A DNA stretch of 64,000 nucleotides, taken from the IMG/VR virus record IMGVR_UViG_3300031873_001030. One strand, 5' to 3'. Both the position numbers and the translations under genes were made by a program. Shown piece after piece: positions 5,799 through 42,043 of the stretch. Position 1 is the first letter of the stretch. The number at the start of each line of letters is the position of its first letter. This stretch comes from a virus. Its lineage: Duplodnaviria > Heunggongvirae > Uroviricota > Caudoviricetes. The notes under the pieces are model-generated. The model worked only from the letters and a program-made list of their open reading frames with translations, searched no databases and had not been told where the DNA came from.

Positions 5799-5822
5799 AA
5801 TGTATCGTTAACCAAAATTCCA

Positions 5823-7702: not shown

Positions 7703-7711
7703 AAAAGATTT

Positions 7712-7787
7712 ATCCCACGTCTTCGGGATTTATCCCTTCTTTCAGAAGGGATTTATATATCACCGAATCTCGTTTTAAACGAGATTC
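7712..7787. repeat. cluster of three hairpins (ATCCC-N8-GGGAT; ATCCCTT-N7-AAGGGAT; GAATCTCGTT-TTAA-AACGAGATTC) with repeated GGGATTTAT flank
   Basis: Perfect stems of 5, 7 and 10 bp; related ATCCC/GGGAT hairpins at 25707..25723 and 43488..43503. Confidence 0.6.
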
Positions 7788-7963
7788 ACAAAGAACTTGT
7801 GGTCGGGTCTGATACGGCAAGGTGTGATACGGTAAGATAAGATTGGGTTATGGTCTGGCAAGGAACTTTTTACTTATATGGTTTGGCACGGTCCATTCCG
7901 TTGCGTTTAGGTGTGGTAAGGCTTGGTATGGTTACGATTTATTTGGCGTAACATATGTAATAC

Positions 7964-12039: not shown

Positions 12040-12374
12040 GAAAAAAATTCAATTATGAAAACTATTACAAGAAATATTATGAAAGTCATAAGGATAAGCA
12101 CTTGTATTATGTCAATGAATGGAAGAAGAAGCATAAAGATAGTGTAAGAATTTATTCCAAACGTTATTCCAAAAGTTGGAGATTGAGAAACAAAGAAAGA
12201 TTGAAGAAAACTTCAAAAAGATATTATGACAGGCATATCAGAAGTTCTTGGTTCGATAGGATATTTGGTTTCAAATGCAAAGTATGCGGCAAGAGATATA
12301 AAGATAAAAAGGCTTTGGGTGGGCATACCACATATTGTAAAAGAAAAAGGATTGAACTTATTAACATATGTTAA
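12018..12374 (+). CDS. Lys-rich protein with C-terminal C2HC zinc finger (118 aa)
   Basis: FKCKVCGKRYKDKKALGGHTTYC; stop codon TAA lies inside palindrome 12361..12374. Confidence 0.45.
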   Translation: MDKGKKMRKKFNYENYYKKYYESHKDKHLYYVNEWKKKHKDSVRIYSKRYSKSWRLRNKERLKKTSKRYYDRHIRSSWFDRIFGFKCKVCGKRYKDKKALGGHTTYCKRKRIELINIC

Positions 12375-12411
12375 AAAGATTGCATGCAGATAACTTCTTA
12401 ACATATGTTAA
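12361..12411. repeat. palindrome pair TTAACATATGTTAA-N23-TTAACATATGTTAA spanning a gene junction
   Basis: First copy holds the stop of 12018..12374; second copy holds the ATG (catATGtta) of 12405..12995. Confidence 0.9.
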
Positions 12412-12995
12412 TTGCTCGGAAATTCCGAAAAGCAGAAGGTAATGACATGGACCCATTGTGGAACAAGAAATTAGAGATAATAAAGAAGCATGGTATAGAC
12501 AATGCTATTTTGGATTTAGGATGCAACATAGGTGACTTCTCCTCATATTTCGTGAGAAATGGATATGATGTGACTGGCGTCGACATAGACAATGAAAATT
12601 TGCTCATAGCAAACAGCAGAGGGATACATACGAAAAAATGCAATCTGAATCTGAAATTGCCTATGAAAAGCAATTCATATCCTACCATCTTCGCATTGGA
12701 GATAATAGAGCATCTCATCAATCCAGACAATGTCATAAAGGAAGCGCATAGACTGCTCAAAGATGGCGGGAAGTTTTATGTGTCAGTCCCATACTTCGGA
12801 CTAGTAAAAAGAACAGCGATATCGCTGTTCTTTTTTGATGATGTCTTTCTATATAATGGTCCGCATATAAGATTTTTCTCTGAAAAATCTTTCCGTAATA
12901 TATTGACAAAAAATGGATTCAAGATTCTCAAGATTTATAAACTTGGAAGATTCTATCCAGTCTATATGGACATGCTTGCCGTATGCTCTAAATAA
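12405..12995 (+). CDS. class I SAM-dependent methyltransferase
   Basis: Motif I ILDLGCNIGDFS; post-I acidic DVTGVDID; LKDGGKFYVSVP motif. Confidence 0.7.
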   Translation: MLIARKFRKAEGNDMDPLWNKKLEIIKKHGIDNAILDLGCNIGDFSSYFVRNGYDVTGVDIDNENLLIANSRGIHTKKCNLNLKLPMKSNSYPTIFALEIIEHLINPDNVIKEAHRLLKDGGKFYVSVPYFGLVKRTAISLFFFDDVFLYNGPHIRFFSEKSFRNILTKNGFKILKIYKLGRFYPVYMDMLAVCSK

Positions 12996-13353
12996 GCAAT
13001 ATGCCTACTACAATCAATAACGAAAGCATTACGAAATTTATAAATCTCGAAGAATCAAATGAGATATTCTTCCCATTATACCAAAGGAATACAAAAGGTG
13101 ACATCCAGAAAAAATGTTTGTGCTTCAGTATGAACAGAGTATCTTCAAGAGTAAATTTGCTATGCCTCAAATCTTCTTTATAATCCTTTATGAAACTTTT
13201 TTCTACCAGATGCTTTTCCTCATGCTTTCTGAGCCTTAAGAACAAGCTTCTATTTTTTTTTAGAAATGGTTCCATGTAGATATTGCCATCTTCGACATAG
13301 GCTATGTTGAACGGGTCAAGCTTCTTATAGATAATCTGGTATTTCAAAGTCAT
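12988..13353 (-). CDS. hypothetical protein with C-terminal TM anchor (121 aa)
   Basis: ORF ends MLSLLIVVGILLI. Confidence 0.35.
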   Translation of the reverse strand: MTLKYQIIYKKLDPFNIAYVEDGNIYMEPFLKKNRSLFLRLRKHEEKHLVEKSFIKDYKEDLRHSKFTLEDTLFILKHKHFFWMSPFVFLWYNGKNISFDSSRFINFVMLSLLIVVGILLI

Positions 13354-13583
13354 TTATCATCATCAGAATCTTTTGTAAACAGAATTCCCAGATATTTCAA
13401 TCTATCTTCCTCTATTCTTTCAAATCTCAATCTTGTATTTCCAAGCCTGTATACTTCATGGTTGGTGCTATAGTTGTAAAACATGAACCTCAATTGGAAT
13501 TGTTCCAAATCTTTTTTCCCATATAATCTTCCTATCTCAAGTTCATTGTCATCCATCATTTCCTTTCTCCTATACATGAGCAA
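13350..13583 (-). CDS. hypothetical protein (77 aa)
   Basis: Intact ORF overlapping neighbour by 4 nt (operon-like). Confidence 0.3.
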   Translation of the reverse strand: MLMYRRKEMMDDNELEIGRLYGKKDLEQFQLRFMFYNYSTNHEVYRLGNTRLRFERIEEDRLKYLGILFTKDSDDDK

Positions 13584-13723
13584 TTTTCACAAATCCAATA
13601 CATTGAATTTTTCATTTTGTCATGCCTTATTTTTATGCATTTATTTATGCAGGCAGACTTCCCACAGATGACACATGCTGCCAAAGCTGTCCTTTCGGCT
13701 CTACATATTTCACATGCCATTTA

Positions 13724-14488
13724 TTATCCTTTCCAATTATAATAATTTTTGCAATCATCTTTTGATTCGCACTGTTGGCATGATGTATCATCCTTATCAA
13801 AAAGTGTGAAGCAGTCATGAAAAGGTGGTCTCTTTATTATTTTTTTATTGCCCATGAACAATCCTAATTCGACCAATCTATCTGAACATTCGCTATCTTT
13901 AGCAGATATCACTTCTTCTAATTTGATTTTAAATAGCGCTAGCAAGACCATCGCTTGTCCTCTTTCTTTGCTCTCTCCTTTTGGAAAGTGCTTGTCCAGT
14001 TCATCAATAAGTTCTTCTATTACATTTGCAGACAAGATTTCAGAACAAGGATGCTGTTCTGTCCCTCTTGTTTTACAGGATGAATTGTTTGGGTTATCTG
14101 ACTTGCCTTTCAAAAAATTATTACGAACCTTTTTGAAATCATTAATCTCACCTTCAAGAGCTATGCCTCCGCTCCAATGTAATTGCTTCAGTTTTCTCAT
14201 GTTTTCCAATCTCTTGATTTCACTGTCCAGAATCTTAATTACATTGTCTTTTGCAATTCTTTTTTCATATCTGCTTGGATTGAATGAACACTTTTCCCAG
14301 CTCCTTACTTTCCCATCATTATATTCTCCATCCTCAGAAGTTCCGCATATCAAATCACAATGCAGGGCGACTAATCCCAAATCATTATCAGCATGTTTGC
14401 AACTGCCACAAGTCATCAGTTCTTCTTTGTTGCAACTTTTTATTATTATTTTTTTCATATTCATTTTCATTTTTTCATCTTCTGTCAT
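13724..14488 (-). CDS. Cys-rich hypothetical protein (254 aa)
   Basis: Many Cys pairs (CGSCKH, CQQCESKDDC); no recognisable domain. Confidence 0.45.
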   Translation of the reverse strand: MTEDEKMKMNMKKIIIKSCNKEELMTCGSCKHADNDLGLVALHCDLICGTSEDGEYNDGKVRSWEKCSFNPSRYEKRIAKDNVIKILDSEIKRLENMRKLKQLHWSGGIALEGEINDFKKVRNNFLKGKSDNPNNSSCKTRGTEQHPCSEILSANVIEELIDELDKHFPKGESKERGQAMVLLALFKIKLEEVISAKDSECSDRLVELGLFMGNKKIIKRPPFHDCFTLFDKDDTSCQQCESKDDCKNYYNWKG

Positions 14489-14822
14489 ATTTCACTACAA
14501 CAACTGTTTTGTTTTTCATAACGGCAGTAGCGATAGTATGTGCTGTTCCATAACTCCAACCATCCCAGAACGCAATGACAATATTTGAATCATTTACCAT
14601 TTCAATATTCCTTTTGAGATAATTGCCACTATCAGCAGGGAAATGTTCTATTTCAATATTATTCTCTCTTGCATATTCTTCTGCATATTCGTCAGCACTA
14701 TTCTTACAACAACCTTCAATAATTATGTCATCTTTATGCAAATGACATTTCAATGTATCAAATACTAATTCCTTATAAGATTCTTTCGTTCTTGTTCCAC
14801 ATATCAAGACTTTATTCATCAT
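14475..14822 (-). CDS. SLOG/DUF2493-like Rossmann-fold protein
   Basis: VLICGTR...GCCKNSADEYAEEYA...FPADSG...IAFWDGWSYGTAHTI resembles the DUF2493 GxR...GADxxA...FxAxW pattern. Confidence 0.4.
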   Translation of the reverse strand: MMNKVLICGTRTKESYKELVFDTLKCHLHKDDIIIEGCCKNSADEYAEEYARENNIEIEHFPADSGNYLKRNIEMVNDSNIVIAFWDGWSYGTAHTIATAVMKNKTVVVVKYDRR

Positions 14823-15055
14823 TTCACCTTTCTTTTTTTCTTATTCAAAGGCATCAAGTCATTCGTACCAATAGCAAAATAACCCATCTTTATCATAGGC
14901 GTGCTGTCTCGCAATATCTTTTTGGGATTATTCTTGTCAGCATAGATTGTAGTATTTCCAAATTGCCCTACTATCATGTCTTCACTTTCAAATGTCTCTA
15001 TCCTTGTATTTTTCACCCTCTCTATGAAATCCTTTAATTCTAATTTTATATCCAA
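14819..15055 (-). CDS. hypothetical protein (78 aa)
   Basis: ORF in co-directional minus-strand cluster with 4-nt overlaps. Confidence 0.35.
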   Translation of the reverse strand: MDIKLELKDFIERVKNTRIETFESEDMIVGQFGNTTIYADKNNPKKILRDSTPMIKMGYFAIGTNDLMPLNKKKRKVK

Positions 15056-15059
15056 ATCA

Positions 15060-15419
15060 TTACCTCTTTAATTTCTTTTTTCGAAAGAAGGCATTGTCAT
15101 AAGTGCAATTCCATTCTGGTTTTCCAACGAGATAAAATCGTTCCTTGCTCAACTTGCCTCTTTTATATTTCTTCTTTTCAATCTTTCCGTAATGATAGCA
15201 TTTGCCTTCATCAAGGACATCATTGACCACATGCCAGAATTTCCTGAACATCAGATTTGCAGGCTTGTCCATATAATTAATCTTCAACCAATGCTGCATA
15301 TTCTTGTTCATCATGAAGAATCCCATGTCAAACATGGCTCTCAATTCATCTTCAGATATCGGTATCTGCAACCAATCCATATTTTTGTCATCAACTATGT
15401 TAATCGTCACTCTCTTCAT
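15060..15419 (-). CDS. hypothetical protein (119 aa)
   Basis: Intact ORF in minus-strand cluster. Confidence 0.4.
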   Translation of the reverse strand: MKRVTINIVDDKNMDWLQIPISEDELRAMFDMGFFMMNKNMQHWLKINYMDKPANLMFRKFWHVVNDVLDEGKCYHYGKIEKKKYKRGKLSKERFYLVGKPEWNCTYDNAFFRKKKLKR

Positions 15420-15682
15420 AAGATATTCGCTCCTAGATTTCCTATGTTGAGTGCAAGTTTTTCACATCGCAGCCCATCATCAGTCACATCTATCACTTTA
15501 TATAATACTCCATTTTTATCCATGATTACTTTTCCGATATAGTTCTGCTTGTTGACTCTCATGTCTTTCAGCACTTCTGAAGTTATCGAACTCATGTCAA
15601 GAAATCCTCTTATATCATTTTTTTCTGTCCTTGCTCCAAAAATAATCCTTATGTCTCCCATATCATTCATCCTCCAACTCAT
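15416..15682 (-). CDS. hypothetical protein (88 aa)
   Basis: Intact ORF overlapping downstream gene by 4 nt. Confidence 0.4.
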   Translation of the reverse strand: MSWRMNDMGDIRIIFGARTEKNDIRGFLDMSSITSEVLKDMRVNKQNYIGKVIMDKNGVLYKVIDVTDDGLRCEKLALNIGNLGANIL

Positions 15683-15765
15683 TCAAATCCTTGTCAAATT
15701 CATATATGGCATTCTCATCTTCTGGCATGCACCATTTTTTCAAGAACTTTTTTAATTTCATTTAA

Positions 15766-15984
15766 TCAACCCTGGCAATAATGTCTTGTTCTCTTCTCAC
15801 CTTTGAAAATCCTTCTCGCTTTCCATATTTCCCGATTCTTGTTTACGACGAAGTTCAGGTATTCGCCATCATTATCCATCTTCTCCAAGTCAGCACAAAG
15901 CATGTTCTCATGATATGGACATGGATAATAGTTTCCTCCGCTTGTCCTGCATCCGCAGGCAAAGTCTGTTCCGATTTGAATCAC
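15766..15984 (-). CDS. hypothetical Cys-containing protein (72 aa)
   Basis: CGC...CPYH...C motif; overlapping + strand ORFs considered less likely. Confidence 0.3.
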   Translation of the reverse strand: MIQIGTDFACGCRTSGGNYYPCPYHENMLCADLEKMDNDGEYLNFVVNKNREIWKARRIFKGEKRTRHYCQG

Positions 15985-16499
15985 CTAAGCTTTCGTATCT
16001 TGACTTCGATGAATGTCTCGGCATCGAAAAACTTTCCAAACTTCAGAGGAATCCATATTATCTTCCCTCTTTTTCCCATCTGACCCACCTTACATCTAAA
16101 ACTTATTTCATTTATCATAAAATATATTAGTTTCATTAGAATATAAAGTTTTAAATTCAATTATAATACAGCAAATAGAAGTGACAATTATACCAAACCC
16201 AAGTTGAGTCACTGAAATGAGGATTTATAGTTCAATCCAATCTTTACAATTTCCACAGAAGTCTCCACCACTCTTACAGCTTCCATCATAAAAATTTTTA
16301 CAACTACTGCAGCATCTCAAGTTTTAACCTATTTTTAGCTTCTTCTTCCAACTTACATATTTCATTTATCGTATACATCACAATAACCTCCACATCTTCA
16401 ATCTGACAGCGAGTTTATACATATTATGCCAAAACCAACTGCCTTCATTCTTTCTCGCAAACATATATATTCCAACATATGTTATCAATGACATAATTG

Positions 16500-16770
16500 T
16501 AAACCACAGATTACCAGACCATACCCGAACCTATAAGACCACATCACACCTGAGCGAAAAGTGTTAACCATACCACATCAGACTTTATCATGCCTTACCA
16601 GTCCTTAACATATCGTAACTTACCACAACGTAGCATAAATGACAATCCATATCTTACCACACACCAACATATCTTACCAAAACCCACCCTAACCCATCTA
16701 ACCCAATCATAAATATAATCCCTATCTTACCAAATCCCATCACAACGGACCCTACCAAATCAGACCCCGT
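16500..16770 (-). repeat. inverted partial copy of the GGTNN satellite (G-rich strand on minus)
   Basis: ACC-rich on + strand (accagaccatacccgaacc...); the reverse complement matches units of the 5090..7940 array, e.g. ggtaagatagggattatatttatg. Confidence 0.7.
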
Positions 16771-16868
16771 TAAATAATTATAAGTTTCCCTTTAAAGAAA
16801 CATGGAAGAGGACTTGTTCCTCTTCCCAACCAAATAATACCTTCTTGCCCTCTAAGTCAGTTACTTCT

Positions 16869-17171
16869 TTATCGAATAAAAACGTCGAAAGCTTTTGCCT
16901 TTCGTCCGCTTTTAGTTGAAACTAGACCCTTGAAGACAATTTTCAGTTCCTGACCAATTTTCACTGAACCCATCTGTCTCTCTAAAATCATAGAACCAAA
17001 GACAGTTCTGACTTTTCCAGTGTTGTCTTTGATGTCGTAGACTCTGGACTTACTTCCATCTGGCCTGAAGTAATTTCCATCTCGAATTTGCATGAGAGTT
17101 CCTTCCAGTGAGTCGTCTTCATTTTCGAATCTGAATATTTCTCCACTTGTAGATTGCCAATTTCCTGGCAT
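16869..17171 (-). CDS. hypothetical protein (100 aa)
   Basis: Intact ORF; divergent from 17441 across an AT-rich 270-bp region. Confidence 0.45.
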   Translation of the reverse strand: MPGNWQSTSGEIFRFENEDDSLEGTLMQIRDGNYFRPDGSKSRVYDIKDNTGKVRTVFGSMILERQMGSVKIGQELKIVFKGLVSTKSGRKAKAFDVFIR

Positions 17172-17440
17172 GAATTATCAACTCCATTATTAATTAATAG
17201 AAACTATCAGTCTCTATCTAGATTATTTCATAACTTGGGAATAGTCTAGAATACAGACAAGCTCTTCAGTCTATATAAACATAATTGAAATCTGTGAGAT
17301 AAACTTCAGAAACTTTATCTCATGACTTATATCTTTCAAGATAAAGTTTCCCTGATAGAAAAGAGTATTTATAATCAAACATCAATATAATGACCGATAG
17401 CTTTTTAAAGCTATGCTTTATGTGATAAAGGAGAATAGGA

Positions 17441-17638
17441 ATGATAATAGACTATGGCAAGTTGAAAGGAAAGAAAGTGAAATTGTTATGCGTATTTGAA
17501 GGTCTGAGTCAGACTATCTATTACGATGGCATAATACTAGATTCATCTGAAGTCAATAAGGTTGTGACCATATCAGATAGATTTAGCAAGACAGTTCACA
17601 TTGATATGGATAGTATAAAACAAGTGGTAGAGTTATGA
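17441..17638 (+). CDS. hypothetical small protein (65 aa)
   Basis: AAGGAGAATAGG SD upstream. Confidence 0.35.
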   Translation: MIIDYGKLKGKKVKLLCVFEGLSQTIYYDGIILDSSEVNKVVTISDRFSKTVHIDMDSIKQVVEL

Positions 17639-17742
17639 TTGAGAGAAAGAAAGACAGAACAAAGGTGGATAACCATTAGTCCTGCCCTTCATCTGTATAA
17701 GATATTGCTTTTTCTAGTATATAAGTCTTACTTGGTGGTATT

Positions 17743-18933
17743 ATGACGTTGAAGAATCTTGTAACGCCATTGGAACTTAAGACTCTCTGGGATTCTGAAT
17801 ATTACAAATCAATATTGACAGCTACAGCTAGCAGCTGCCAATTTGGAAGGATAAGAGAACACCAACGTAATAATACATTCAAAGAAATCAGAGCCAATCT
17901 GAATGCTCTGATAGTTGGAGAATATGGAATTGGGAAATCCACAATGTTGGACATTAAGAATGTCCCAATAGTCAGGGCTAATACAGTTTCAGTTGCTGGA
18001 CTAGCTGGAACTACGACAAGAAGTGGGGAACACGTTATTGGAGCTGCATATAAAGCTAATAATAAATTACTAATTATAGATGACGTTGGTAGTGGTGAAA
18101 ATTCTTATATAGATAATTCTGTAAAACGATGCATGAATCTGCTATTGGAACCTCCGCATACTTTTTCACGAATGTTAGGATTTAAGATGAACATTCCTGT
18201 GAAAGAGAAGAAGGGTGGAGCTTGGGTGAAAGGAAGTGAGAATCAGTTTACATTGCGTTCTAAGTTCAGTTGCATCGTAGCTACAACATCAGTTGTAATT
18301 CGAAATACTGATGACAAAGCTTGGATGTCAAGATTCGTACCAGTAAAACTACATGGTAGTGTGGATTACATGTTTGAATTTTTATCTGGTTCTAATCCAT
18401 TTACAATTACTGGTTTGAATCGGAAAGTCAAGTTATTTGAATTTCCAGATTATCTGGAATTCTTGGAATTCTATGAAGAACATTTTCGTGGAAGTCTGTG
18501 GGAGAAAAGCATAATAGAAAAGGAAGATGAAGTCGGTTCTATAGCGAGAAATACTGGTGACTTGGTAAGATTGGCTGCTTTCAATTGCGCTGTCGATGAT
18601 AGAATAAATATAGAATTTGAAGATGCCAAGAAAGTTTTTGATAGGTTCTACAATCAGATATGGTTCAATATCCAAGTTGGACCACTGACTCATGAACAAT
18701 ATAGAGTTCTATTACTTCTCAATAAGAAGTTGACTGAAGATGAGATAGCAGAAACTATACAAAGGTCACAGCCTTACGTATCTAAGATGATAGAGAAATT
18801 TGAAAGTAAGGGAATACTTGTAGACAGAAAAGTTGCGAAAGAAGTTGAAAACTTTAAACAAACTTCATGGGAAAAACTCGAACCACAGCAGACTTTATCA
18901 GAATCTGTAAAGTTAGATGGTAGTCATGAGTGA
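17743..18933 (+). CDS. AAA+ ATPase with C-terminal winged-helix domain (Orc1/Cdc6-like or mobile-element replication initiator)
   Basis: Walker A VGEYGIGKST; Walker B LLIIDDVGSGE; C-terminal wH LTHEQYRVLLLLNKKLTEDEIAETIQRSQPYVSKMIEKFESKGIL. Confidence 0.55.
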   Translation: MTLKNLVTPLELKTLWDSEYYKSILTATASSCQFGRIREHQRNNTFKEIRANLNALIVGEYGIGKSTMLDIKNVPIVRANTVSVAGLAGTTTRSGEHVIGAAYKANNKLLIIDDVGSGENSYIDNSVKRCMNLLLEPPHTFSRMLGFKMNIPVKEKKGGAWVKGSENQFTLRSKFSCIVATTSVVIRNTDDKAWMSRFVPVKLHGSVDYMFEFLSGSNPFTITGLNRKVKLFEFPDYLEFLEFYEEHFRGSLWEKSIIEKEDEVGSIARNTGDLVRLAAFNCAVDDRINIEFEDAKKVFDRFYNQIWFNIQVGPLTHEQYRVLLLLNKKLTEDEIAETIQRSQPYVSKMIEKFESKGILVDRKVAKEVENFKQTSWEKLEPQQTLSESVKLDGSHE

Positions 18934-19099
18934 TTATAAAGATAAATTGCATTATAGTGAACGTGATGATAGATATTACACAATGAGTGACTATGAAAAA
19001 AAATATCGACAAACTAAAAAGTACAAGGAATATAGAAAAAAATATCGGAAAAAACTGAAAGAGAAAAGGTTGATGAGAAGTTACAAATGATATTACAAA

Positions 19100-19560
19100 A
19101 TCGGCGCGCGCAAGTTTAACTAAAGCTATTAGCTGATGTGATGAGACTACTATGTAGGAGTAATGCTATATGAAGAACTCTAAGTAGTAAAAATAAAAAA
19201 ATTATATAATATATATATTAGAGTATATGAATGAAATCGTTGTTGGAGTTAAGGCGTAGAATGTCTCCGTTGGGGTAATTCATCTAGTCTGTATAGAGTA
19301 GAGGAAGAATATTCCAAATCGCAGAACATAGAGAGAGAGAGAGAGAAAATCTTGACTTCTTGTTTTGCCAAATGGAATATTTTGCTAGTAGTCTATAAAG
19401 ACTAGATGAACAAGGCTAACGGAGACAATTTACGCCTTCTTTCCAATAACGAAAAACGCAGTTTTTTTGCCAAAAATGATATTGAAAAAAGCCACTTTTT
19501 CGTTGTTTTTTGAAACAGCACTAAATTCATAGACTAGTAGTAAAAAAAACTCAAATTAAG
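19100..19560. other. candidate replication origin / structured intergenic region
   Basis: ORF-free ~720 bp downstream of the AAA+-wH gene. ~166-bp imperfect palindrome with outer IR tgtctccgtt (19262..19271 / 19418..19427) and inner IR catctagtct (19281..19290 / 19399..19408). (GA)8 at 19331..19346 sits between the arms. AT-rich flanks. Confidence 0.35.
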
Positions 19561-19672
19561 TATATGCTTCAAAACATACTTCATATGATATAATTTAACG
19601 AAGGATGACATTTCATGCATTGAAGATATTTAAACTTGAAAAACGAAAGTTATCATTAGTTTAAGTGATAAG

Positions 19673-20074
19673 ATGTTGGAAGAAAAACATAAAGGTTCTT
19701 CAAGTTTTTTACTGATTTTGCTTGGAATTTTTATTGGTGTAGCTATTATGTTTTTGATTGGTTTCATTTCAGATTCAAATCCAGATTTTGATTCACCTTC
19801 AGTCAAACTTTTGGGAACTTGGCAGACTTTCATACCAATCAATGGTGTTCAGAATTTATTCACATTCAGTTTTGACAAGAACGCTAGCACAATCATAGCT
19901 TCAGAAACTGCATCAGTCAGTGGAAAATATGAGATTAAAGGTTCAAGTCTGACTATCTTCGATTCCAGCAATCAGACAATTTCAGTTTATACTTATCAAT
20001 TTATTACAGATAACTCTTTGAGTCTGATTCAGTCTGGACAAAATTTAGGAATTATTCTGACTAGATTGGCATAA
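19673..20074 (+). CDS. membrane-anchored/secreted small protein (133 aa)
   Basis: N-terminal TM/signal FLLILLGIFIGVAIMFLIGFI; Ser/Thr-rich remainder. Confidence 0.45.
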   Translation: MLEEKHKGSSSFLLILLGIFIGVAIMFLIGFISDSNPDFDSPSVKLLGTWQTFIPINGVQNLFTFSFDKNASTIIASETASVSGKYEIKGSSLTIFDSSNQTISVYTYQFITDNSLSLIQSGQNLGIILTRLA

Positions 20075-20502
20075 AAATTTTAAAACTTTATAAAGAATGA
20101 TTCCTAAATGAATTGTAGGAAATTTTAATTGGTAAATATGGATTTTATACCTGGAAAATTTTACAGTGTTAAGGAAATAGATGAAGGACTTACAGATTTG
20201 AGAGTCATACACAAGATTAAGGGTGTCGATTATCATCTTTTTAGGAATAAATCACATGATGATGGGAATAGGTATTATCTTATGTATGTTTCAAAAGCGT
20301 ATTGGTTGAAAGAAATACGGGAACGAGGTTTGTTGAAAATATGACAAGAGAAGATAGAAGAAACAAAGTCGCACCAGGATGGAAATTTCTCCATAGCAAG
20401 AATAAGACCCTGCTGTTGAGATACGACAATGAAAATAAATAAAATCAGGAAAGTGAAAAATAGATGACTCACCAAATATAAAGAATAATGAAAGTGAAAT
20501 AG

Positions 20503-24054: not shown

Positions 24055-24100
24055 TGCGTGTGACAGGATTTGAACCTGTAAGGCACTAAGCAACGGATAT
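24055..24100 (-). ncRNA. orphan tRNA 3'-half-like fragment (T-arm ACAGG-TTCAAAT-CCTGT + acceptor 3' strand CACACGC-A)
   Basis: Perfect T-arm and 3' acceptor strand, but no complementary 5' acceptor strand (GYGTGTG) within ~250 nt. Confidence 0.3.
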
Positions 24101-24415
24101 CCAAGTCCTAATCGTTTAAGTTTACTCTTGGTTTGAGCCTTTGAGTTTGGGCCTCTAAGTCCGCCTATCTTTTAAATAATTATATATGCTGTAATATATA
24201 TTATGAAAAAGCGAAAACTAATTTAACTGTTGAAATTAAAGTTATTGGATATGTCTTACTGTAAAGCATGCAGAATATGCCTTCCTTTCTTAATTCATCA
24301 TGCAATTTTATAATTAAGAAGGTTATAATGTTGACTTTGATACTCTTCTTTCCAGCACAAGCTCATATCTTTTTAATACCTTCCTTATTGCAGCAATGAT
24401 ACTTATCTTTTTCTC

Positions 24416-24479
24416 TTAACATATGTTAATCAGTGATGCAGCATAATGCAAAATTCCTTCAGTCTTTAACATATGTTAA
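24416..24479. repeat. palindrome pair TTAACATATGTTAA-N36-TTAACATATGTTAA
   Basis: Two exact 14-mers flanking 36-bp spacer tcagtgatgcagcataatgcaaaattccttcagtct, adjacent to tRNA cluster. Confidence 0.9.
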
Positions 24480-24601
24480 TGTCAAATTAGAAATGCAATA
24501 CGATTGTTAACAAGAAAGTTAACAAAGTCTCACCTGCCAGAATTGCACCAGCATCTACGAGGCTACAGCTCGTTGTTCTACTGTTGAACTAAGGCGAGTT
24601 G

Positions 24602-24674
24602 TGGGGATGCTGAGATTTGAACTCAGATTATTCGCTTCCAGAGCGAAGGTTCTAACAAGTTATACTACATCCCC
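24602..24674 (-). tRNA. tRNA-Pro (anticodon TGG)
   Basis: Manual fold: acceptor GGGGATG/CATCCCC; T-arm CTGAG-TTCAAAT-CTCAG; anticodon stem TTCGC/GCGAA; loop TCTGGAA (C at position 33 is atypical). Confidence 0.65.
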
Positions 24675-24677
24675 AAG

Positions 24678-24751
24678 GGAGAATAGAGGGATTTGAACCC
24701 TCTCTAACAAGTTCACAGCTTGACGTGCTCGCCTACTACACCATATTCTCC
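24678..24751 (-). tRNA. tRNA-His (anticodon GTG) with G-1
   Basis: Acceptor GAGAATA/TATTCTC plus an extra 5' G pairing the discriminator C (His hallmark); D-stem GTGT/GCAC; anticodon loop CTGTGAA; T-arm GAGGG-TTCAAAT-CCCTC. Confidence 0.75.
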
Positions 24752-25212
24752 ATTTTATTATGTTCTTCTCTATGGCAATTTGCACATAGAAGTTTGCATT
24801 TCTGCAATTCTTTTCGTATCACCTCGAGACTATTATGCCATATTCTGGATATTTCATATTTCTTTTCTCCGTTCATATGATGAAATTCAAGTGCTGCGAA
24901 ACATTTGTTATATCCACATTTTTGACATTTACCTCCAAATTCCATTTTCATAATTTTTGTTTTTTCTTGGTTTTTACGCTTTTGTGCTATATACCACAAA
25001 TGTCTCTGAGGGAGAGATGATTTTTGTTTATGTTGTTTTATATATTTTCTCATATATTCTCTATGATATTTTTTCCTTTTTTCTCTGTTTTCAGGGTTTG
25101 ACAACCAAATTTTCCATCGTTCTTTTTCTTGCTCACGGTGTGATTTTCTATATAATCTATTTATTTCACACAATCGTTCTTTGTTTTTTTCATAATATTT
25201 TTTACTGGTCAT
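24736..25212 (-). CDS. HNH endonuclease
   Basis: CQKCGY...LEFHHMNGEK...LCANCHREEH (HNH/zinc-finger nuclease signature); the 3' end of the ORF overlaps the 5' end of tRNA-His. Confidence 0.65.
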   Translation of the reverse strand: MTSKKYYEKNKERLCEINRLYRKSHREQEKERWKIWLSNPENREKRKKYHREYMRKYIKQHKQKSSLPQRHLWYIAQKRKNQEKTKIMKMEFGGKCQKCGYNKCFAALEFHHMNGEKKYEISRIWHNSLEVIRKELQKCKLLCANCHREEHNKMENMV

Positions 25213-25255
25213 ATAATGTAATTGTTTAATACCATTTATATTTGTTGTTGAACTA

Positions 25256-25330
25256 CGCTCTGGGCAAGACTCGAACTTGCAATTTCTCCGTTAACAGCGG
25301 AGCGCTTGTACCTGTTTAAGCTGCCAGAGC
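25256..25330 (-). tRNA. tRNA-Asn (anticodon GTT)
   Basis: Acceptor GCTCTGG/CCAGAGC; D-stem GCTT/AAGC; anticodon stem CTCCG/CGGAG; loop CTGTTAA; T-arm GCAAG-TTCGAGT-CTTGC. Confidence 0.75.
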
Positions 25331-25333
25331 AAG

Positions 25334-25437
25334 TACTCCCCGAATGATTCGAACATTCGTCTCTTGGTTTCTCCAAGTTTCAGATTCTTGTTGAAATTAT
25401 CAAAGCCAAGCATCTTTGTCCACTGGACGAGGGGAGT
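25334..25437 (-). tRNA. tRNA-Gln (anticodon TTG) with ~31-nt intron at 37/38
   Basis: Acceptor ACTCCCC/GGGGAGT; T-arm GAATG-TTCGAAT-CATTC; anticodon stem CTTGG/CCAAG enclosing 38 nt (CTTTGA + 31-nt insert); intron contains TCAA complementary to the anticodon region (BHB-like). Confidence 0.6.
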
Positions 25438-25469
25438 ATATTGATTGTAGTTCTTTTTAAAAACTATGG

Positions 25470-25500
25470 ACACAAGCGGGAATCGAACTCGCATCTCTTT
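25470..25500 (-). ncRNA. orphan tRNA 3'-half-like fragment (GCGAG-TTCGATT-CCCGC T-arm + 3' strand TTGTGTC-C)
   Basis: T-arm-like element with one A.C mismatch; no matching 5' acceptor strand found upstream. Confidence 0.25.
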
Positions 25501-25706
25501 CTTGCAAGGGAAGTATCCTACCATTAAACGATTGGCCCGTCATTGAAGAAAAAAGAACTAGCTCTATTGATTTGCCTTATGGGCGGGCTGTTGATTATAT
25601 GCTTCAATAGACATATTAGAAAATTTAGTCTTGATGATTGATTTGATTTTGTATTATGTGATATATAGAATGCAATATATATTTTAGAAGCATTATTTTC
25701 TAGATT

Positions 25707-26358: not shown

Positions 26359-26598
26359 AGTATTATCAGTAATTGCAAAAATATATCTCCGAAATCGGGA
26401 AGGTTACAGATTCACTGGAAACCAGCGAAGCATTGTCGATGCTATGAAATCCTTCCCAGTAGGAGATAAATTTATTTGTGCAGATAATCTTAAATACTTT
26501 AACAACCGATATAATTGTATCTCTCATACAGCTATGGGATTCATAATACAACAACAGGATGTAGTACAGTTTCCGTAGCGATTTTGGAGGGTACATTT

Positions 26599-26859
26599 AT
26601 GGATACCATCACGCTATATATACTTAGAACAAAGCCAGAGACACATTTCTATGTTGGAATTACTAAAGACCTTGATAAGAGATTAGAACAGCATAAAAAT
26701 AATCCAAATGTCTCTTGGGTAAAAAGAAGAAACTTTAAATTTGATTTAGTATGGAGAGAGAAATTTCCTGATTTGAAATCTGCAAGGAAAAAGGAGAAAT
26801 ATTATAAGAAAATGGAAAGGAAAAGACTCTTAAAAATCATTGGGATAAAAGGAGTGTGA
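26599..26859 (+). CDS. small GIY-YIG nuclease-superfamily protein (YhbQ/Slx1-like), paralogue 1
   Basis: LYILRTKPETHFYVGITKDLDKRLEQHK GIY-YIG core; GGAGG SD 9 nt upstream of internal ATG 26599 (track ORF starts 26515); paralogue at 35982..36239. Confidence 0.65.
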   Translation: MDTITLYILRTKPETHFYVGITKDLDKRLEQHKNNPNVSWVKRRNFKFDLVWREKFPDLKSARKKEKYYKKMERKRLLKIIGIKGV

Positions 26860-26863
26860 TGGT

Positions 26864-28279
26864 ATGGAACTAAACAAAGGTTCAAAAAGAACGAGAAAAG
26901 TAATTAATCCTGAAGGTTCTATAGTATTGAAACGTTCAGATGAAATCCAGCTATATCTTGAAGCAAGCAATCTCAACATAAAGGAAGATAAGTTCTATCA
27001 GAGTGCTAAGGACAAGCTGGCAAGCTTGATAAAGATGGCTAGGGAAGCCAATCAGGCATACGTCTTTGGTCTTGGAAGATTCTTAACTGACAACGGATTG
27101 AAACTTTCTCCAGTTGTGTTATATTCAGTACTGTCTGACAGACATGTTCCAATTAATGCAAGTGCAATAAAGACATTCAACACTCCTCAAAGAATAGCAG
27201 AAGCTGTATCATTGCAGAATCTTAAGATAGTTAAATTGAACAACCAATTCAAGAAAAAGATTCTTAAGAAAGCCTTGGAAAACATGTCAGAATTTACTTT
27301 GAGAAAGAACAAGATGCTTAAGAGAAAAGTCAAGGAAAAGGACTTGATTAAACTTTTGAGGCCTAAGCCAGCAAATGCAGAAATGGCAAAGCTATACAAG
27401 GCAATTATAGAAGATGACAAGCTTTCAAAGATGAAGGAGACTGAAACATTTGTAAGAGTGAAGTCTTCAAAAGAAATGAACACTAAAGATAAGCTTGATT
27501 ATTTGACAAATAACGTAGACAGGCTTCCAATAAATGAATTGATAAGAAATCTTAAGTTCATCTCTGAAAATGCAGACTTCAGGAAAGACTTTGAATTGAA
27601 GAGCAAAGTGATAGCAAAATTGCAGAATATAAAGGACATGAGGTTCTTGAACGTTTTTGATTTGATAACCACTGTGGTTTATGTTCCAGACTTCAGCAAG
27701 GCACTGTCAGAAGTTGTAAAGAAATTTTGCGATGATGTTAAAGCTAAGTTTGACTACAATGAAAGTGCAACTGTATTATTTGACTTGTCTGGAAGTATGG
27801 AAGGGGAGGGAATAGAAAAAGGTTTTAAGTACTTGGTACTGTTTGCAAATATATTTGGCAATTTGAAATTGAGATGCTTTAGTGAAGAATTGCTTAAGGA
27901 CACTTACCAGAATGTCATCACTGACATAAATAAAGGAAATTACAAGATTGCATTGAACAAGCTTGACACTATCGGTGGAACTGCATTGCTTGATTCTTTG
28001 GACAAACTTATAGATGAGGGAAAGACTGAATCTAATATAATCATTATAAGCGATGAAGTGAGCTGGCTTGAAGGAGATGACTTGAGTGTGAGAATAAAGG
28101 AAATTTCAGACAAGCTTAAGGGAAAGAAAGTGATACTGGTAAATCCTGTAGTTTATAAGGGAACAGTATTCAGGGACAATATAATTGCATTTGCAAGCCT
28201 TACCTCAAATGTCATTTACAATCTGATGATAGGAACAAAGCCAGAAGCATTTGTAAAGATGATAAAAGAATATAAGTGA
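26864..28279 (+). CDS. von Willebrand factor A (vWA) domain protein with alpha-helical N-terminal region (471 aa)
   Basis: MIDAS motifs VLFDLSGSMEG (DxSxS), GGTALLDSL, IIIISDEVSW; N-terminal ~290 aa Lys-rich helical, TROVE/Ro60-like architecture not excluded. Confidence 0.6.
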   Translation: MELNKGSKRTRKVINPEGSIVLKRSDEIQLYLEASNLNIKEDKFYQSAKDKLASLIKMAREANQAYVFGLGRFLTDNGLKLSPVVLYSVLSDRHVPINASAIKTFNTPQRIAEAVSLQNLKIVKLNNQFKKKILKKALENMSEFTLRKNKMLKRKVKEKDLIKLLRPKPANAEMAKLYKAIIEDDKLSKMKETETFVRVKSSKEMNTKDKLDYLTNNVDRLPINELIRNLKFISENADFRKDFELKSKVIAKLQNIKDMRFLNVFDLITTVVYVPDFSKALSEVVKKFCDDVKAKFDYNESATVLFDLSGSMEGEGIEKGFKYLVLFANIFGNLKLRCFSEELLKDTYQNVITDINKGNYKIALNKLDTIGGTALLDSLDKLIDEGKTESNIIIISDEVSWLEGDDLSVRIKEISDKLKGKKVILVNPVVYKGTVFRDNIIAFASLTSNVIYNLMIGTKPEAFVKMIKEYK

Positions 28280-33878: not shown

Positions 33879-34622
33879 TTGTATACTTTCTTTGAAGAAA
33901 GTATTATGATAGAAGATGAAATTATAAGCGGGAGAATTTCTATTGGTCGGGTTGGTATTTATCTTAATGCTAAGACTAAAGGTGGTTACAATATAGGATT
34001 TAATTTTCTTAATAGTCCAGAGCTGAGGACTGCGGGCGTGTGCAATATCACGAAGGACCAGATGTTTATAATGTTTGCTGATTTTGACAATATAGGTTAT
34101 GAAAAACTTAAAGACCAGTTGGATTTCATAAATAGGAATCATGATGTGAGCAATTTTCTTGTTCTTACGACTGGAAAGAATCGATATCATGTGATAAGTT
34201 TTGAAAAATTCTGGAAACAGGAATTAGTTGACATATTGAAGAATACTTTCTGCGATTATACGTATAAAAGTTTTGTTCCGTTGAAAGTTGACAAGGGCTG
34301 GATACTTAGGGTGACTGAAAAGAGGGATTTGGATAATAATGTTGTGAAGGACAGGCCTGAATATGTAGAATCGTTTTCTTATTCTGAAGTCCCTAAGAGG
34401 AGATTGTCGCGTGCTCACGTAGAATTTTTTTCGAGAATGTATCCTGAATTCAGGAAATTTGCAGAGGAGAAGCTTGATAAAAATTATTGGGATGAGTTTA
34501 CTGTGATTCAGCTGCTGAAATATGGGACAAGCCATGAGAATCTTATTGCAAAATTTGACTTGAAGGATTTGATAGATTCCAAGAAGCTTGAAATAGTGTG
34601 GAAGGACAATATATTTGATTAG
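33879..34622 (+). CDS. putative primase-polymerase (AEP/prim-pol-like) domain protein
   Basis: AEP-like motifs: FIMFADFDNIGYE (DxD), TGKNRYHVISF (sxH), VDKGWILRV (D..hR); stop codon abuts hairpin element copy D. Confidence 0.4.
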   Translation: MYTFFEESIMIEDEIISGRISIGRVGIYLNAKTKGGYNIGFNFLNSPELRTAGVCNITKDQMFIMFADFDNIGYEKLKDQLDFINRNHDVSNFLVLTTGKNRYHVISFEKFWKQELVDILKNTFCDYTYKSFVPLKVDKGWILRVTEKRDLDNNVVKDRPEYVESFSYSEVPKRRLSRAHVEFFSRMYPEFRKFAEEKLDKNYWDEFTVIQLLKYGTSHENLIAKFDLKDLIDSKKLEIVWKDNIFD

Positions 34623-34695
34623 TGACAATGAACCTCAGAGTAGGAACCAACTGGAAAGTGGAATCAGCAAGTCATAACTGCGAGGTTCATTGTCA
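34623..34695 (+). ncRNA. structured hairpin element copy D
   Basis: Outer stem GACAATGAACCTC/GAGGTTCATTGTC (two compensatory pairs relative to copies A-C); followed by gcttttatt T-tract. Confidence 0.6.
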
Positions 34696-35402: not shown

Positions 35403-35417
35403 TCTTTATGTGATGAG

Positions 35418-35500
35418 TTAGGGTCCGATGGGGTAAGTTAGGATATTGTGAGGTCGGATGTGGTATGTTTGGTGAGGTAAGGTATGGTCCGATATGGTTT
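35418..35500 (+). repeat. GGTNN satellite patch (includes TCCGATATGGT submotif) immediately upstream of gene 35503
   Basis: gggtccgatggggtaagttagg...ggtccgatatggttt; same family as 5090..7940. Confidence 0.65.
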
Positions 35501-41671: not shown

Positions 41672-41698
41672 ACTTTGATTACCAATTATTATGACAGC

Positions 41699-41745
41699 GT
41701 ATGGTTAGGTCTGGTTGGATGTGATAAGATAAGGTTTGGTAAGAT
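41699..41745 (+). repeat. GGTNN satellite patch upstream of gene 41764
   Basis: gtatggttaggtctggttggatgtgataagataaggtttggtaag. Confidence 0.55.
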
Positions 41746-42043
41746 AATAAAGAGGTAATGTAAATGGGAATACTTGATATGTTTACGCAATCTGACAGAC
41801 TGAAAAATGTTTTGTTGGGAATTATTAATATGTTGCTTCTTTTGGGAATTTTTCTTCTTGGCCATAATTCTGCGATATGGACAAATGAACAAATACAAAC
41901 ATATTGTTCCATAGATTGGTGCAATGCTTATCGCATGAATACAGGAATTTTCAATACTTCTATCATAACTGGTGTGAATGATACTTTTAATATTTCAGAT
42001 TTAGGTCTGAATCCGAAATTGAATTTTACATTGGTGAATGTAA

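Follow-up and report, generated by a model that had tools for sequence, protein, structure and literature searches.

A compact tRNA array with a free-standing HNH endonuclease gene, an intron-bearing tRNA-Gln and two imperfect tRNA-like elements on an archaeal virus-like element

The minus strand of the window, by which we mean the whole 64-kb stretch of DNA that was analyzed, carries a tRNA array with an HNH endonuclease gene inside it and one imperfect tRNA-like element toward either end (elements A and B). Sequence searches that required additional DNA covered 71 kb, namely the window and 7 kb to its right. The array and its immediate surroundings comprise the following features:

24055-24096, minus strand: element A, an orphan 3' part of a tRNA (Rfam in truncated mode, 15.2 bits, E 0.33)
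24416-24429 and 24466-24479: a pair of palindromes TTAACATATGTTAA, 14 bp each, in the 431 nt that separate tRNA-Tyr from element A
24528-24598, minus strand: tRNA-Tyr(GUA) (ARAGORN and Rfam, 52.9 bits)
24602-24674, minus strand: tRNA-Pro(UGG) (ARAGORN and Rfam, 55.9 bits)
24678-24751, minus strand: tRNA-His(GUG), including the encoded G-1 at 24751 (ARAGORN and Rfam, 61.4 bits)
24736-25212, minus strand: free-standing ORF of the HNH homing-endonuclease type, 158 aa (PHROG profiles)
25256-25330, minus strand: tRNA-Asn(GUU) (ARAGORN and Rfam, 57.7 bits)
25334-25437, minus strand: tRNA-Gln(UUG) (ARAGORN with introns allowed)
25467-25538, minus strand: element B, tRNA-Ala(UGC)-like (Rfam tRNA model, 37.5 bits)

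Read along the minus strand, the order was tRNA-Ala(UGC)-like, Gln(UUG), Asn, the HNH gene, His, Pro and Tyr, and an XPF-type nuclease gene lay upstream of all of these co-oriented genes. The initial annotation had described a compact minus-strand tRNA cluster; the cluster is real and larger than described, tRNA-Tyr having been missed 3 nt after tRNA-Pro. Spacers of 3 nt were found inside both tRNA groups (Gln-Asn and His-Pro-Tyr), and the gene coordinates agreed with the 3-nt distances previously given for tRNA-Pro/tRNA-His and for tRNA-Asn/tRNA-Gln, with tRNA-Gln recovered only when introns were allowed. The array tRNAs were of archaeal type, as demonstrated by the C1-G72 pair of tRNA-Tyr (which is of archaeal/eukaryal type and has a short variable loop), the A1-U72 pair of tRNA-Gln, the encoded G-1 of tRNA-His (with discriminator C73) and the lack of an encoded CCA in every one of them. 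The palindrome TTAACATATGTTAA occurred in 15 copies in the window, compared with 0.03 expected, and the copies were mostly paired, 37-66 bp apart. When the whole locus was compared with INPHARED phages by blastn, a single 55-nt tRNA match was obtained and nothing else.

The tRNA-Gln(UUG) gene is composed of exon 1 (25400-25437), a 31-nt intron (25369-25399) and exon 2 (25334-25368) on the minus strand, with the intron at canonical position 37/38. In archaeal bulge-helix-bulge introns, the first two anticodon bases sit in the 4-bp helix (PMC4090602). The hand-built structure of the tRNA-Gln precursor demonstrated this arrangement, with two 3-nt bulges (GAU and AAA) and a 4-bp helix (CUUU/GGAG) in which C32-U35, including the first two anticodon bases, pair with GGAG. 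This form was not the minimum free energy (MFE) fold of the precursor (-18.1 vs -33.2 kcal/mol); the spliced RNA of 73 nt folded into a clean cloverleaf with the 7-nt anticodon loop CUUUGAA. ARAGORN run with the -i option labeled 25334-25437 as tRNA-Stop(tta), and this label was rejected in favor of Gln(UUG) on the bulge-helix-bulge geometry; a "suppressor tRNA" call by this program at this site amounts to a misplaced intron boundary. The tRNA-Gln(UUG) genes of relatives were intronless. Maturation of the tRNA-Gln of the window requires a host splicing endonuclease and ligase to excise the 31-nt intron. The archaeal flavor that had been suspected of the cluster was thus confirmed by an intron that had gone unmentioned.

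The ORF lying between the tRNA pairs had been called an HNH endonuclease, and profile searches agreed: it matched PHROG 3106 (E 4e-22) and PHROG 2255 (E 5e-20), both annotated "HNH endonuclease", and had 234 homologs, some with PF01844. Its translation carries the motif CQKC...HH...N...CANCH, in which CxxC pairs flank an HNH (beta-beta-alpha-metal) core, and a Pfam search with the single sequence gave no match at 0.01. The best homologs were located in jumbo-phage-like contigs (54-58% identity over the HNH domain), and one homolog (P0003) lies directly beside an array of 14 tRNAs on a phage-like contig. As had also been noticed, the 3' end of the ORF overlaps the 5' end of tRNA-His; the overlap is the last 15 nt, made up of four codons and the stop. 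Since this overlap is part of tRNA-His, RNase P acting on a shared transcript would strip the stop codon from the HNH message, and any one transcript could either yield mature tRNA-His or be translated into the HNH protein, but not both. The gene is probably a selfish homing-endonuclease gene lodged between tRNA-Asn and tRNA-His.

To the right of the array, a second group of genes was found:

26382-26469, minus strand: short Y-RNA-like gene (covariance model R1, 41 bits, E 3e-7)
26519-26594, plus strand: short Y-RNA-like gene (model R1, 40.8 bits; motif, stem and fold)
26599-26859, plus strand: GIY-YIG endonuclease gene (Pfam GIY-YIG, E 6e-14; gene-caller coordinates)
26864-28279, plus strand: Ro60/TROVE-like protein with a C-terminal vWA/MIDAS domain (family profile against PDB)

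The GIY-YIG gene sits 1.1 kb from the tRNA array and is separated by 4-nt gaps from the Y-RNA-like gene on one side and the TROVE gene on the other. A Pfam search with the single TROVE-like sequence gave no match; a family profile built from 34 homologs matched the TROVE proteins 9L5Y and 9KOP in PDB (E 3e-16, residues 13-408), and the DxSxS motif of the vWA MIDAS (D307, S309 and S311) was invariant. In the Y-RNA-like family, 92.9% of the cells of the terminal stem were paired, compared with 40-55% in slid controls, and double changes were observed in 13 of 18 pairs. These genes adjoin the Ro60/TROVE gene and have a conserved terminal stem with an internal loop, the features by which Y RNAs are recognized, and are candidate ligands of Ro60. 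Both copies in the window were short and lacked a tRNA-like module.

The TROVE-like protein had 97 homologs, encoded on contigs of 15-106 kb that represent a family of archaeal virus-like elements carrying PolB, ThyA, dUTPase and RNA ligase. The hallmark of the family is the Ro60/TROVE gene flanked by the new Y-RNA-like family. All relatives compared showed at most 60% protein identity, and none was found in IMG/VR with the XPF, DUF6745 or TROVE single sequences or with the TROVE profile. Two assemblies of the element of the window were identical. In one relative (L022/L023), at least 24 tRNAs, one of them an intron-bearing tRNA-Thr, are interspersed with HNH, HNH_3 and LAGLIDADG genes, and an HNH-NUMOD3 gene lies near the array. 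The HNH genes of L022 were related to that of the window at the motif level only, and therefore give no evidence for a shared insertion. The much bigger arrays of relatives suggest that tRNAs and endonuclease genes come and go within the family. Neither a virus hallmark (capsid, terminase) nor a plasmid replication gene was detected in the window with Pfam and PHROGs, and the element is considered putatively virus-like on the gene content of its relatives. The XPF gene was closest to those of Aenigmatarchaeota MAGs (47% identity), and synteny did not extend to the array, tRNAs being absent near the closest XPF homologs in Aenigmatarchaeota and Woesearchaeota MAGs.

Element B had been described as an orphan 3' half at about 25470-25500, and this description was refuted. 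The Rfam model RF00005 called a full-length tRNA (25468-25538, model positions 1-71) at 37.5 bits, compared with a gathering score of 29; ARAGORN detected it only at a lowered threshold. The acceptor strand GGGCCAA pairs 7/7 with UUG(U)GUCC only if one U is bulged, and hand pairing gave G3·U70 and A73, the identity set of alanine, in agreement with the anticodon UGC. The defects are A·C mismatches at 30-40 in the anticodon stem and 52-62 in the T stem, and a D-stem composed mostly of G·U (three G·U pairs). The cloverleaf had an energy of -4.3 kcal/mol, compared with -14.6 kcal/mol for the unconstrained MFE structure, which retained the bulged acceptor stem. The tRNA-Ala(UGC) of relative L022 is built in the same way, with G3·U70 and A73, and other viral tRNAs in the element family score as low (38.6 bits). 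Element B is a full-length but degenerate tRNA-Ala(UGC)-like gene. It may be a complete tRNA-Ala gene turning into a pseudogene or a weak viral tRNA, and it might still work as a tRNA.

Element A, on the strand of the array and at its distal end, corresponded to the earlier description of an element at 24055-24100 with a T-arm and a 3' acceptor strand: no complementary 5' acceptor strand was found for it. Its T-arm (24063-24079) is perfect, ACAGG-UUCAAAU-CCUGU, with the canonical loop GGUUCAAAUCC on a 5-bp stem, and is directly followed by the 3' acceptor strand CACACGC and A73. The T-arm is preceded by a variable region that is long, as in class II tRNAs. Over the 3' strand of the anticodon stem, the variable arm and the T-arm, element A matched the tRNA-Leu(UAG) of relative L022 at 25 of 32 positions, a likeness that is short and in part due to the universal T-loop. 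In blastn against INPHARED phages, the T-arm was matched, the best matches were tRNA-Leu genes, and the top match was the tRNA-Leu of halovirus HGTV-1. A strand complementary at 8 of 9 positions was observed 19 nt downstream of the element, with an estimated chance probability of ~0.3. A TATA-like box, TTATTTAAAA, lies about 85 nt upstream of element A, and the TTAACATATGTTAA palindrome pair separates element A from the array; on these two features, element A might be separately transcribed and functional.

Element A most likely derives from a tRNA gene that has since been lost. What survives would be the 3' third of a Leu-like gene of class II, whose 5' part may have disappeared through deletion or recombination.

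The initial annotation had suggested an attachment site. In this reading, element A would be attP, or attR of an island, copied from the end of a host tRNA gene that closes with ...CCUGUCACACGCA and used by an integrase. Integration into tRNA genes is common among archaeal viruses and plasmids (PMC4090602), and element A consists of exactly the T-arm and 3' acceptor part usual in tRNA att sites. A second copy was nevertheless absent from the 71 kb, even with up to 5 mismatches allowed, and no integrase or recombinase domain of the tyrosine or serine type was found with Pfam and PHROGs in about 50 ORFs scanned. Searches of JGI metagenomes and IMG/VR with the exact 21-mer of element A returned only unrelated bacterial or phage-type contigs, among them one phage tRNA-Lys, and the likeness to the relative's own tRNA-Leu reaches into the variable arm. 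The attachment-site reading fails on these results, and we regard it as unlikely.

It is also improbable that element A arose by chance as a T-arm-like hairpin, without descent from a tRNA. In favor of chance, the exact 11-mer of the T-loop had one further copy on the same strand, inside an ORF at about 38213, a looser T-arm pattern had one stray match on the plus strand (60791), and the fold of the region was no more stable than those of shuffled sequences (z = -0.74). Against chance stand the canonical loop, the perfect 5-bp stem, the strand and end of the array at which the element lies, the 7-nt strand followed by A, and the Leu-like stretch of variable arm.

The Ro60/TROVE gene and the two Y-RNA-like genes, 0.8-2.8 kb away, raise a further reading, in which element A, element B or both would be functional tRNA mimics for a Ro60/Y-RNA system, acting for example as a Y-RNA-type module, as a substrate of Ro60 or as a decoy. 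In relatives, the long Y RNAs include tRNA-like modules in the order T-arm, closed acceptor hairpin (4-5-nt loop) and D-arm, and the window has no such long Y RNA. On element A, however, model R1 covered the T-arm only and scored 12.6 bits, compared with 16.1 bits for an ordinary tRNA junction, and the element has no closed acceptor hairpin, D-arm, CAUACAG/UUCAUA motif or CGUUUUUGGA motif. Element B has its modules in the order of a normal, unpermuted tRNA. We give a role as mimics a low probability. Element A as a degenerate Y RNA was suggested by its spacing in a MAFFT alignment and was rejected, the covariance model covering nothing beyond the T-arm.

A broader proposal would join the array, the defective tRNA-Ala, the tRNA stub and the Ro60/Y-RNA module into one functional system, a viral tRNA supply combined with an RNA-surveillance or decoy apparatus, with the tRNA-like RNAs (A and/or B) as ligands or substrates of Ro60; this is a little harder still to credit. 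If it were true, the long Y RNAs of the family would have arisen from tandem tRNA genes in arrays with 3-nt spacing, and archaeal mobile elements would have their first described Y-RNA system.

Finally, a split tRNA of the Nanoarchaeum type, trans-spliced from element A as its 3' half and a 5' half encoded elsewhere, had been offered as an alternative and is very unlikely: the archaeal host lineage splices bulge-helix-bulge introns and the TATA-like box stands upstream, but no credible 5'-half candidate (acceptor strand plus D-arm) was present on either strand of the 71 kb, no 11-mer complementary to a would-be leader occurred in the accessible 71 kb except at one chance site inside a giant ORF, and no exon boundary is defined in the putative strand of the anticodon stem. 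The likeness to the split and permuted tRNAs of Nanoarchaeum, Caldivirga and Cyanidioschyzon is superficial, consisting of a 3' portion without an adjacent 5' portion, and, unlike in those systems, neither a 5' half, nor a complementary leader or trailer, nor a bulge-helix-bulge junction goes with element A in the accessible 71 kb.

Large phages (T4 with segB, T5-like and jumbo phages) have free-standing homing endonuclease genes between the tRNAs of their tRNA gene regions. The array of the window is similarly compact and on one strand, with spacers of a few nucleotides and with HNH and GIY-YIG genes within or beside it, whereas its tRNAs are of archaeal type (C1-G72 in tRNA-Tyr, the bulge-helix-bulge intron) and its element has no recognizable Caudoviricetes hallmark genes. 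Among the 34-36 tRNAs of the Halogranum tailed virus HGTV-1 are pseudogenes and a single gene with an intron (PMC13532342), and in this the array of HGTV-1, an archaeal virus, resembles that of the window. No protein or DNA relationship between HGTV-1 and the window was detectable beyond the tRNA T-arm, however, and the window has a GC content of about 35% and likely a different host, given that its XPF is nearest to those of Aenigmatarchaeota MAGs.

The Ro60 neighborhood also has counterparts. Nidhogg-type viruses of Asgard archaea have large genomes that are reported to encode Ro60 (TROVE and vWA) and RNA ligase, and the paper that describes them mentions neither Y RNAs nor tRNAs (bioRxiv 10.1101/2021.07.29.454249). 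The family of the window similarly encodes TROVE and vWA domains, and its relatives encode RNA ligase and PolB, the two groups being compared by description only. Like the bacterial and phage Y RNAs YrlA and YrlB next to rsr (Ro60), the Y-like RNAs of the family, numbering 1-4, are encoded no more than ~1.7 kb from the TROVE gene, and covariation strongly supports their terminal stem with an internal loop. YrlA has the module order T-arm, closed acceptor hairpin and D-arm (PMC4201824), which the long Y RNAs of the family share. The motifs differ, being CAUACAG...UUCAUA and CGUUUUUGGA and not GNCGAAN0-1G, and the context is archaeal; the family's Y-like RNAs scored below the threshold of the Rfam YrlA model.

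Taken together, the data make it fairly probable that the locus is a virus-type tRNA array with an HNH gene on an archaeal extrachromosomal virus-like element, and that both supposed orphans are by-products of array turnover. No sign of an integration site or of a split tRNA was found, and both mechanisms fail by the conditions that the initial annotation had itself named for their refutation, one fragment being a full-length tRNA to a covariance model and the other having no duplicate in the 71 kb. The suggestion of a hotspot for mobile DNA holds insofar as the locus attracts mobile DNA in general, although its agents are free-standing homing endonuclease genes and not integrases. Other viruses are known to carry tRNA arrays in which selfish endonuclease genes, pseudogenes and now and then an intron occur, so that the tRNA locus is of an ordinary, known kind and the Ro60/Y-RNA neighborhood is the more novel part. 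What looks to the eye like an orphan tRNA half can be a complete but weak tRNA or the remnant of a deletion and need not be an att site or a split gene. The analysis assigns the window to an archaeal family of virus-like elements that is large, unannotated and characterized by a Ro60/TROVE gene and a new Y-RNA-like family supported by covariation, and the archaeal-type, intron-bearing tRNAs on the element provide a handle for host assignment.

The tRNA cluster lies on the minus strand and comprises the following features:

24055-24096, minus strand: tRNA 3' part (element A)
24528-24598, minus strand: tRNA-Tyr(GUA), intron-less
24602-24674, minus strand: tRNA-Pro(UGG), intron-less
24678-24750, minus strand: tRNA-His(GUG), intron-less
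24736-25212, minus strand: HNH ORF of 158 codons
25256-25330, minus strand: tRNA-Asn(GUU), intron-less
25333-25437, minus strand: tRNA-Gln(UUG) with a 31-nt intron
25467-25538, minus strand: tRNA-Ala(UGC)-like gene (element B)

The tRNA-Tyr, tRNA-Pro, tRNA-His and tRNA-Asn genes scored 52.9-61.4 bits with Rfam, and ARAGORN agreed on all four. The Pro, His, Asn and Gln genes of the initial annotation were present, as were its 3-nt gaps between Pro and His and between Asn and Gln; tRNA-Tyr, separated from tRNA-Pro by another 3-nt spacer, had been missed. The sequence encodes G-1 of tRNA-His at 24751, opposite discriminator C73; tRNA-Tyr has C1-G72 and a short variable loop, and CCA is not encoded in the set. 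The Tyr C1-G72 pair, the His G-1 and the absent CCA, which we take to be archaeal by established tRNA identity rules, together with the short Tyr variable loop, support an archaeal type for the whole tRNA set.

The gene at 25333-25437(-) was called by ARAGORN with introns allowed and was labelled "tRNA-Stop (tta)", because the intron was placed two bases too far 5'. In the precursor as drawn, the anticodon stem (CUUGG/CCAAG) and an inner intron helix accompany a 4-bp helix of C32-U33-U34-U35 paired with intron GGAG, and two 3-nt bulges (G36-A37-U and A-A-A38). This fits the archaeal bulge-helix-bulge as defined in PMC4090602, with a 3-nt bulge on either side of a 4-bp helix that takes in the first two bases of the anticodon, and the intron was thus assigned to that type. 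Cuts within the bulges excise 25369-25399 and leave a 73-nt RNA whose unconstrained fold is a clean cloverleaf with the anticodon loop CUUUGAA. The bulge-helix-bulge fold is not the minimum for the precursor (-18.1 versus -33.2 kcal/mol). Its geometry gives tRNA-Gln(UUG), and the suppressor tRNA was rejected, although automated annotation could mistake the gene for one. The tRNA-Gln(UUG) genes of relatives are intron-less and share the same A1-U72 pair.

The contig containing the window (ENA k141_1406800, 91,950 bp) was identical to the Logan assembly of SRR9651338, with a GC content of about 35%. No housekeeping or virus hallmark genes were recognised in the window. Those recognised encode ParB-like, PD-(D/E)XK, XPF/ERCC4, GIY-YIG, HNH and AAA+/wHTH proteins, methyl- and glycosyltransferases, an SPFH protein and giant repeat proteins; the closest matches to the XPF protein were in Aenigmatarchaeota MAGs (47% identity). 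A 471-aa ORF at 26864-28279(+) with a vWA/MIDAS domain had no Pfam match. Its 97 homologs are carried by contigs of 15-106 kb; about 80 of these homologs are full-length and share 43-57% identity with it. A profile of 34 homologs matched the TROVE domain-containing PDB entries 9L5Y and 9KOP (E 3e-16), and the DxSxS MIDAS motif was invariant, which identifies the protein as Ro60-like. Besides very many small ORFs, the TROVE-bearing contigs encode PolB, thymidylate synthase (ThyA), dUTPase-like proteins, helicases and RNA ligase, a gene content that is virus-like. The TROVE protein is the hallmark of this element family (97 homologs, including those on the relatives L018, L020, L021, L022 and L024), which was not found in IMG/VR. 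Ro60 (TROVE+vWA) and RNA ligase are both reported to be encoded by Nidhogg viruses of Asgard archaea (bioRxiv 10.1101/2021.07.29.454249), a parallel to the element family at the level of gene content.

Several repeats were also observed in the window. The perfect 14-bp palindrome TTAACATATGTTAA occurs in 15 copies versus 0.03 expected (starts 700, 988, 1575, 1613, 2314, 2359, 2425, 2491, 5432, 5478, 5823, 12361, 12398, 24416 and 24466), mostly paired 37-66 bp apart and many of them intergenic; it probably serves a dimeric DNA-binding protein as an operator or a centromere-like site, and a ParB-like gene is present in the window. The ParB-like gene (4011-4895) adjoins a 3-kb stretch (~4900-7960) without ORFs of at least 100 aa, with degenerate GGT-rich repeats of roughly 5-nt periodicity, and on the basis of this adjacency the stretch may be an origin or partition region. 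Further positions noted with this repeat region were 16500-16770 (inverted), 35414-35493 and 41696-41759. A long-hairpin repeat of ~79 nt is present in three to four copies (4937-5015, 6152-6223, 6942-7020 and 34616-34694), and the longest inverted repeat (19237-19328 and 19361-19452; 92-nt arms, 76% complementary, 32 nt apart) is intergenic, upstream of 19673. Giant ORFs fill the right part of the window (44139-48161, 49389-60647 and 62346 onward; 11697-20450 in the giant-ORF entry L015), with lengths of 1340, 3752, 1736 and more than 1460 aa. Many DUF285 (BspA-like) repeats occur in the product of 3752 aa, and such ORFs are unusual cargo for a virus-like element.

A larger tRNA array was found in the relative L022/L023, where at least 24 tRNAs flank the TROVE gene on its two sides; one is a tRNA-Thr(UGU) with a 14-nt intron (L022 13733-13818). 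The tRNAs are interleaved with HNH, HNH_3 and LAGLIDADG genes, and the first tRNA is preceded, at a distance of about 3.5 kb, by an HNH-NUMOD3 gene. The region beside these arrays (L022 13215-16603) encodes an MJ1316-domain protein, an eRF1/acVLRF1-like protein and a metallophosphoesterase. RNA ligase genes occur at other places on the contig, and the combined set resembles one for RNA repair or translation rescue.

The HNH ORF of the window matched PHROG HNH-endonuclease families (E 4e-22 and 5e-20) and had no match in a single-sequence Pfam search; several of its 234 database homologs carried PF01844, and its CxxC...HH...N...CxxCH motif was intact. As had been proposed, it ends inside tRNA-His, the overlap being its final four codons and stop (24736-24750). 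It resembled the L022/L023 HNH genes at the motif level only, and its closest proteins were on jumbo-phage-like contigs, among them one that borders an array of 14 tRNAs. These similarities indicate that different endonuclease lineages have repeatedly colonised tRNA arrays.

Element B was initially described as lacking a 5' acceptor strand, which was incorrect; it is a full-length tRNA-like gene. The full Rfam tRNA model matched 25468-25538 at 37.5 bits (threshold 29) with six non-standard pairs. With one extra U in the 3' strand bulged, hand pairing of GGGCCAA with UUG(U)GUCC gave 7/7 acceptor pairs, and this stem was retained in the unconstrained minimum-energy fold. G3·U70 and discriminator A73 form the alanine identity set, consistent with the UGC anticodon, and, apart from the bulge, the layout is that of tRNA-Ala(UGC) in a related element. 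Its weaknesses are A·C mismatches at 30-40 and 52-62, a D-stem of mostly G·U pairs, and a cloverleaf energy of -4.3 versus -14.6 kcal/mol for the minimum. Low-scoring tRNAs are common in the family, as in L022 (38.6 and 42.6 bits); element B either belongs among them or is a gene in decay.

Element A proved to be the orphan initially described. It has a perfect T-arm (ACAGG UUCAAAU CCUGU) followed by CACACGC-A, and no strand pairing with CACACGC was found upstream on the minus strand. No credible 5' half, with a pairing acceptor strand and then a D-arm, was found in 71 kb (the window plus 7 kb more of the contig). Rfam in truncated mode gave 15.2 bits (E 0.33) with a long variable region aligned. 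Among the tRNAs of a related element, the best local alignment was to tRNA-Leu(UAG) (25/32 identity), spanning the anticodon-stem 3' strand, variable arm and T-arm, and the best match in a phage collection was the tRNA-Leu of halovirus HGTV-1. These similarities, although short, and the long variable region suggest that element A represents a class II, Leu-like tRNA gene of which the 3' third is left. The spacer separating it from tRNA-Tyr holds a TATA-like box and two 14-bp palindromes, so element A may be transcribed separately, which keeps a functional reading at low probability.

The initial annotation had explained such elements as att sites left by integrase-mediated insertion or as 3' halves of split tRNAs; for element A neither was supported, and either would depend on evidence from the host genome or from the contig's other 21 kb. 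For the att site, no second copy was present in 71 kb with up to 5 mismatches allowed, no integrase domain was found among about 50 ORFs scanned, and an exact 21-mer of element A retrieved only unrelated bacterial or phage-type contigs from JGI metagenomes and IMG/VR, the match in one being a tRNA-Lys. For the split tRNA, no sequence complementary to a putative leader was found, and the 5' half was missing from the 71 kb. The proposed hotspot for mobile DNA holds through homing endonucleases, but not through these two mechanisms.

The locus would best be explained as a reduced version of the family's tRNA array, in which the HNH gene would have inserted selfishly between Asn and His, with element B a weakened tRNA-Ala and element A the remnant of a lost tRNA. 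The order and shared orientation of XPF, element B, Gln, Asn, HNH, His, Pro and Tyr suggest that they are transcribed as a single unit, in which case the HNH reading frame would lose its stop codon when RNase P cuts at tRNA-His.

Beside the TROVE genes of relatives, T-arm-containing elements were present that no tRNA finder called. They are listed below, after the two short counterparts in the window and the adjoining GIY-YIG and TROVE genes:

26382-26469, minus strand: short Y-RNA-like gene without the tRNA-like module
26519-26594, plus strand: short Y-RNA-like gene without the tRNA-like module
26599-26859, plus strand: GIY-YIG endonuclease gene
26864-28279, plus strand: Ro60/TROVE-like ORF
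L018 9561-9994; L020 9884-9963; L021 9456-9996; L022 8257-8459 and 9317-9715; L024 2341-2650: Y-RNA-like elements of relatives

The plan shared by the Y-RNA-like elements is 5'-(R)UC-AUACAG-[8-10-nt strand]-UUCAUA ... [complementary strand]-CGUUUUUGGA(Y)-3', the motifs CAUACAG...UUCAUA and CGUUUUUGGA flanking a covarying 8-10-bp stem. A covariance model based on six of the long members detected 15 members at E < 1e-3, including both short genes of the window; none was farther than about 1.7 kb from a TROVE gene. The terminal stem was strongly supported by covariation: 92.9% of cells were paired versus 40-55% with slid partners, double changes occurred in 13 of 18 pairs, and the observed values were reached in 0 of 500 shuffles. 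In the long members a T-arm is followed by an acceptor-like hairpin with a 4-5-nt closing loop and then by a D-arm with GG, resembling the permuted tRNA-like module of bacterial and phage YrlA RNAs beside Ro60 genes (PMC4201824), but the Rfam YrlA model stayed below threshold on every member. These elements form a new Y-RNA-like family. Element A was ruled out as a Y RNA, since the model gave it 12.6 bits, on the T-arm alone, less than the 16.1 bits for 24646-24702(-), which spans the tRNA-His 3' half and the tRNA-Pro 5' half. This junction match, and acceptor-hairpin loops in the long Y RNAs of L018, L022 and L024 equal to the discriminator base plus the arrays' typical 3-nt spacer, suggest a tandem duplication of a tRNA gene as the origin of the module.

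In relatives, Y RNAs extend up to the TROVE gene, where the window has the GIY-YIG gene, with 4-nt gaps to the last Y-RNA-like gene and to the TROVE start codon. This looks like a precise homing-endonuclease insertion, possibly at the expense of a long Y RNA.

Viruses are already known to carry tRNA arrays that include endonuclease genes, pseudogenes and an intron, for example HGTV-1 (PMC13532342), a precedent for the tRNA locus described here. The more novel content is the Ro60/Y-RNA module of these uncharacterised archaeal elements, just beyond the tRNA locus.
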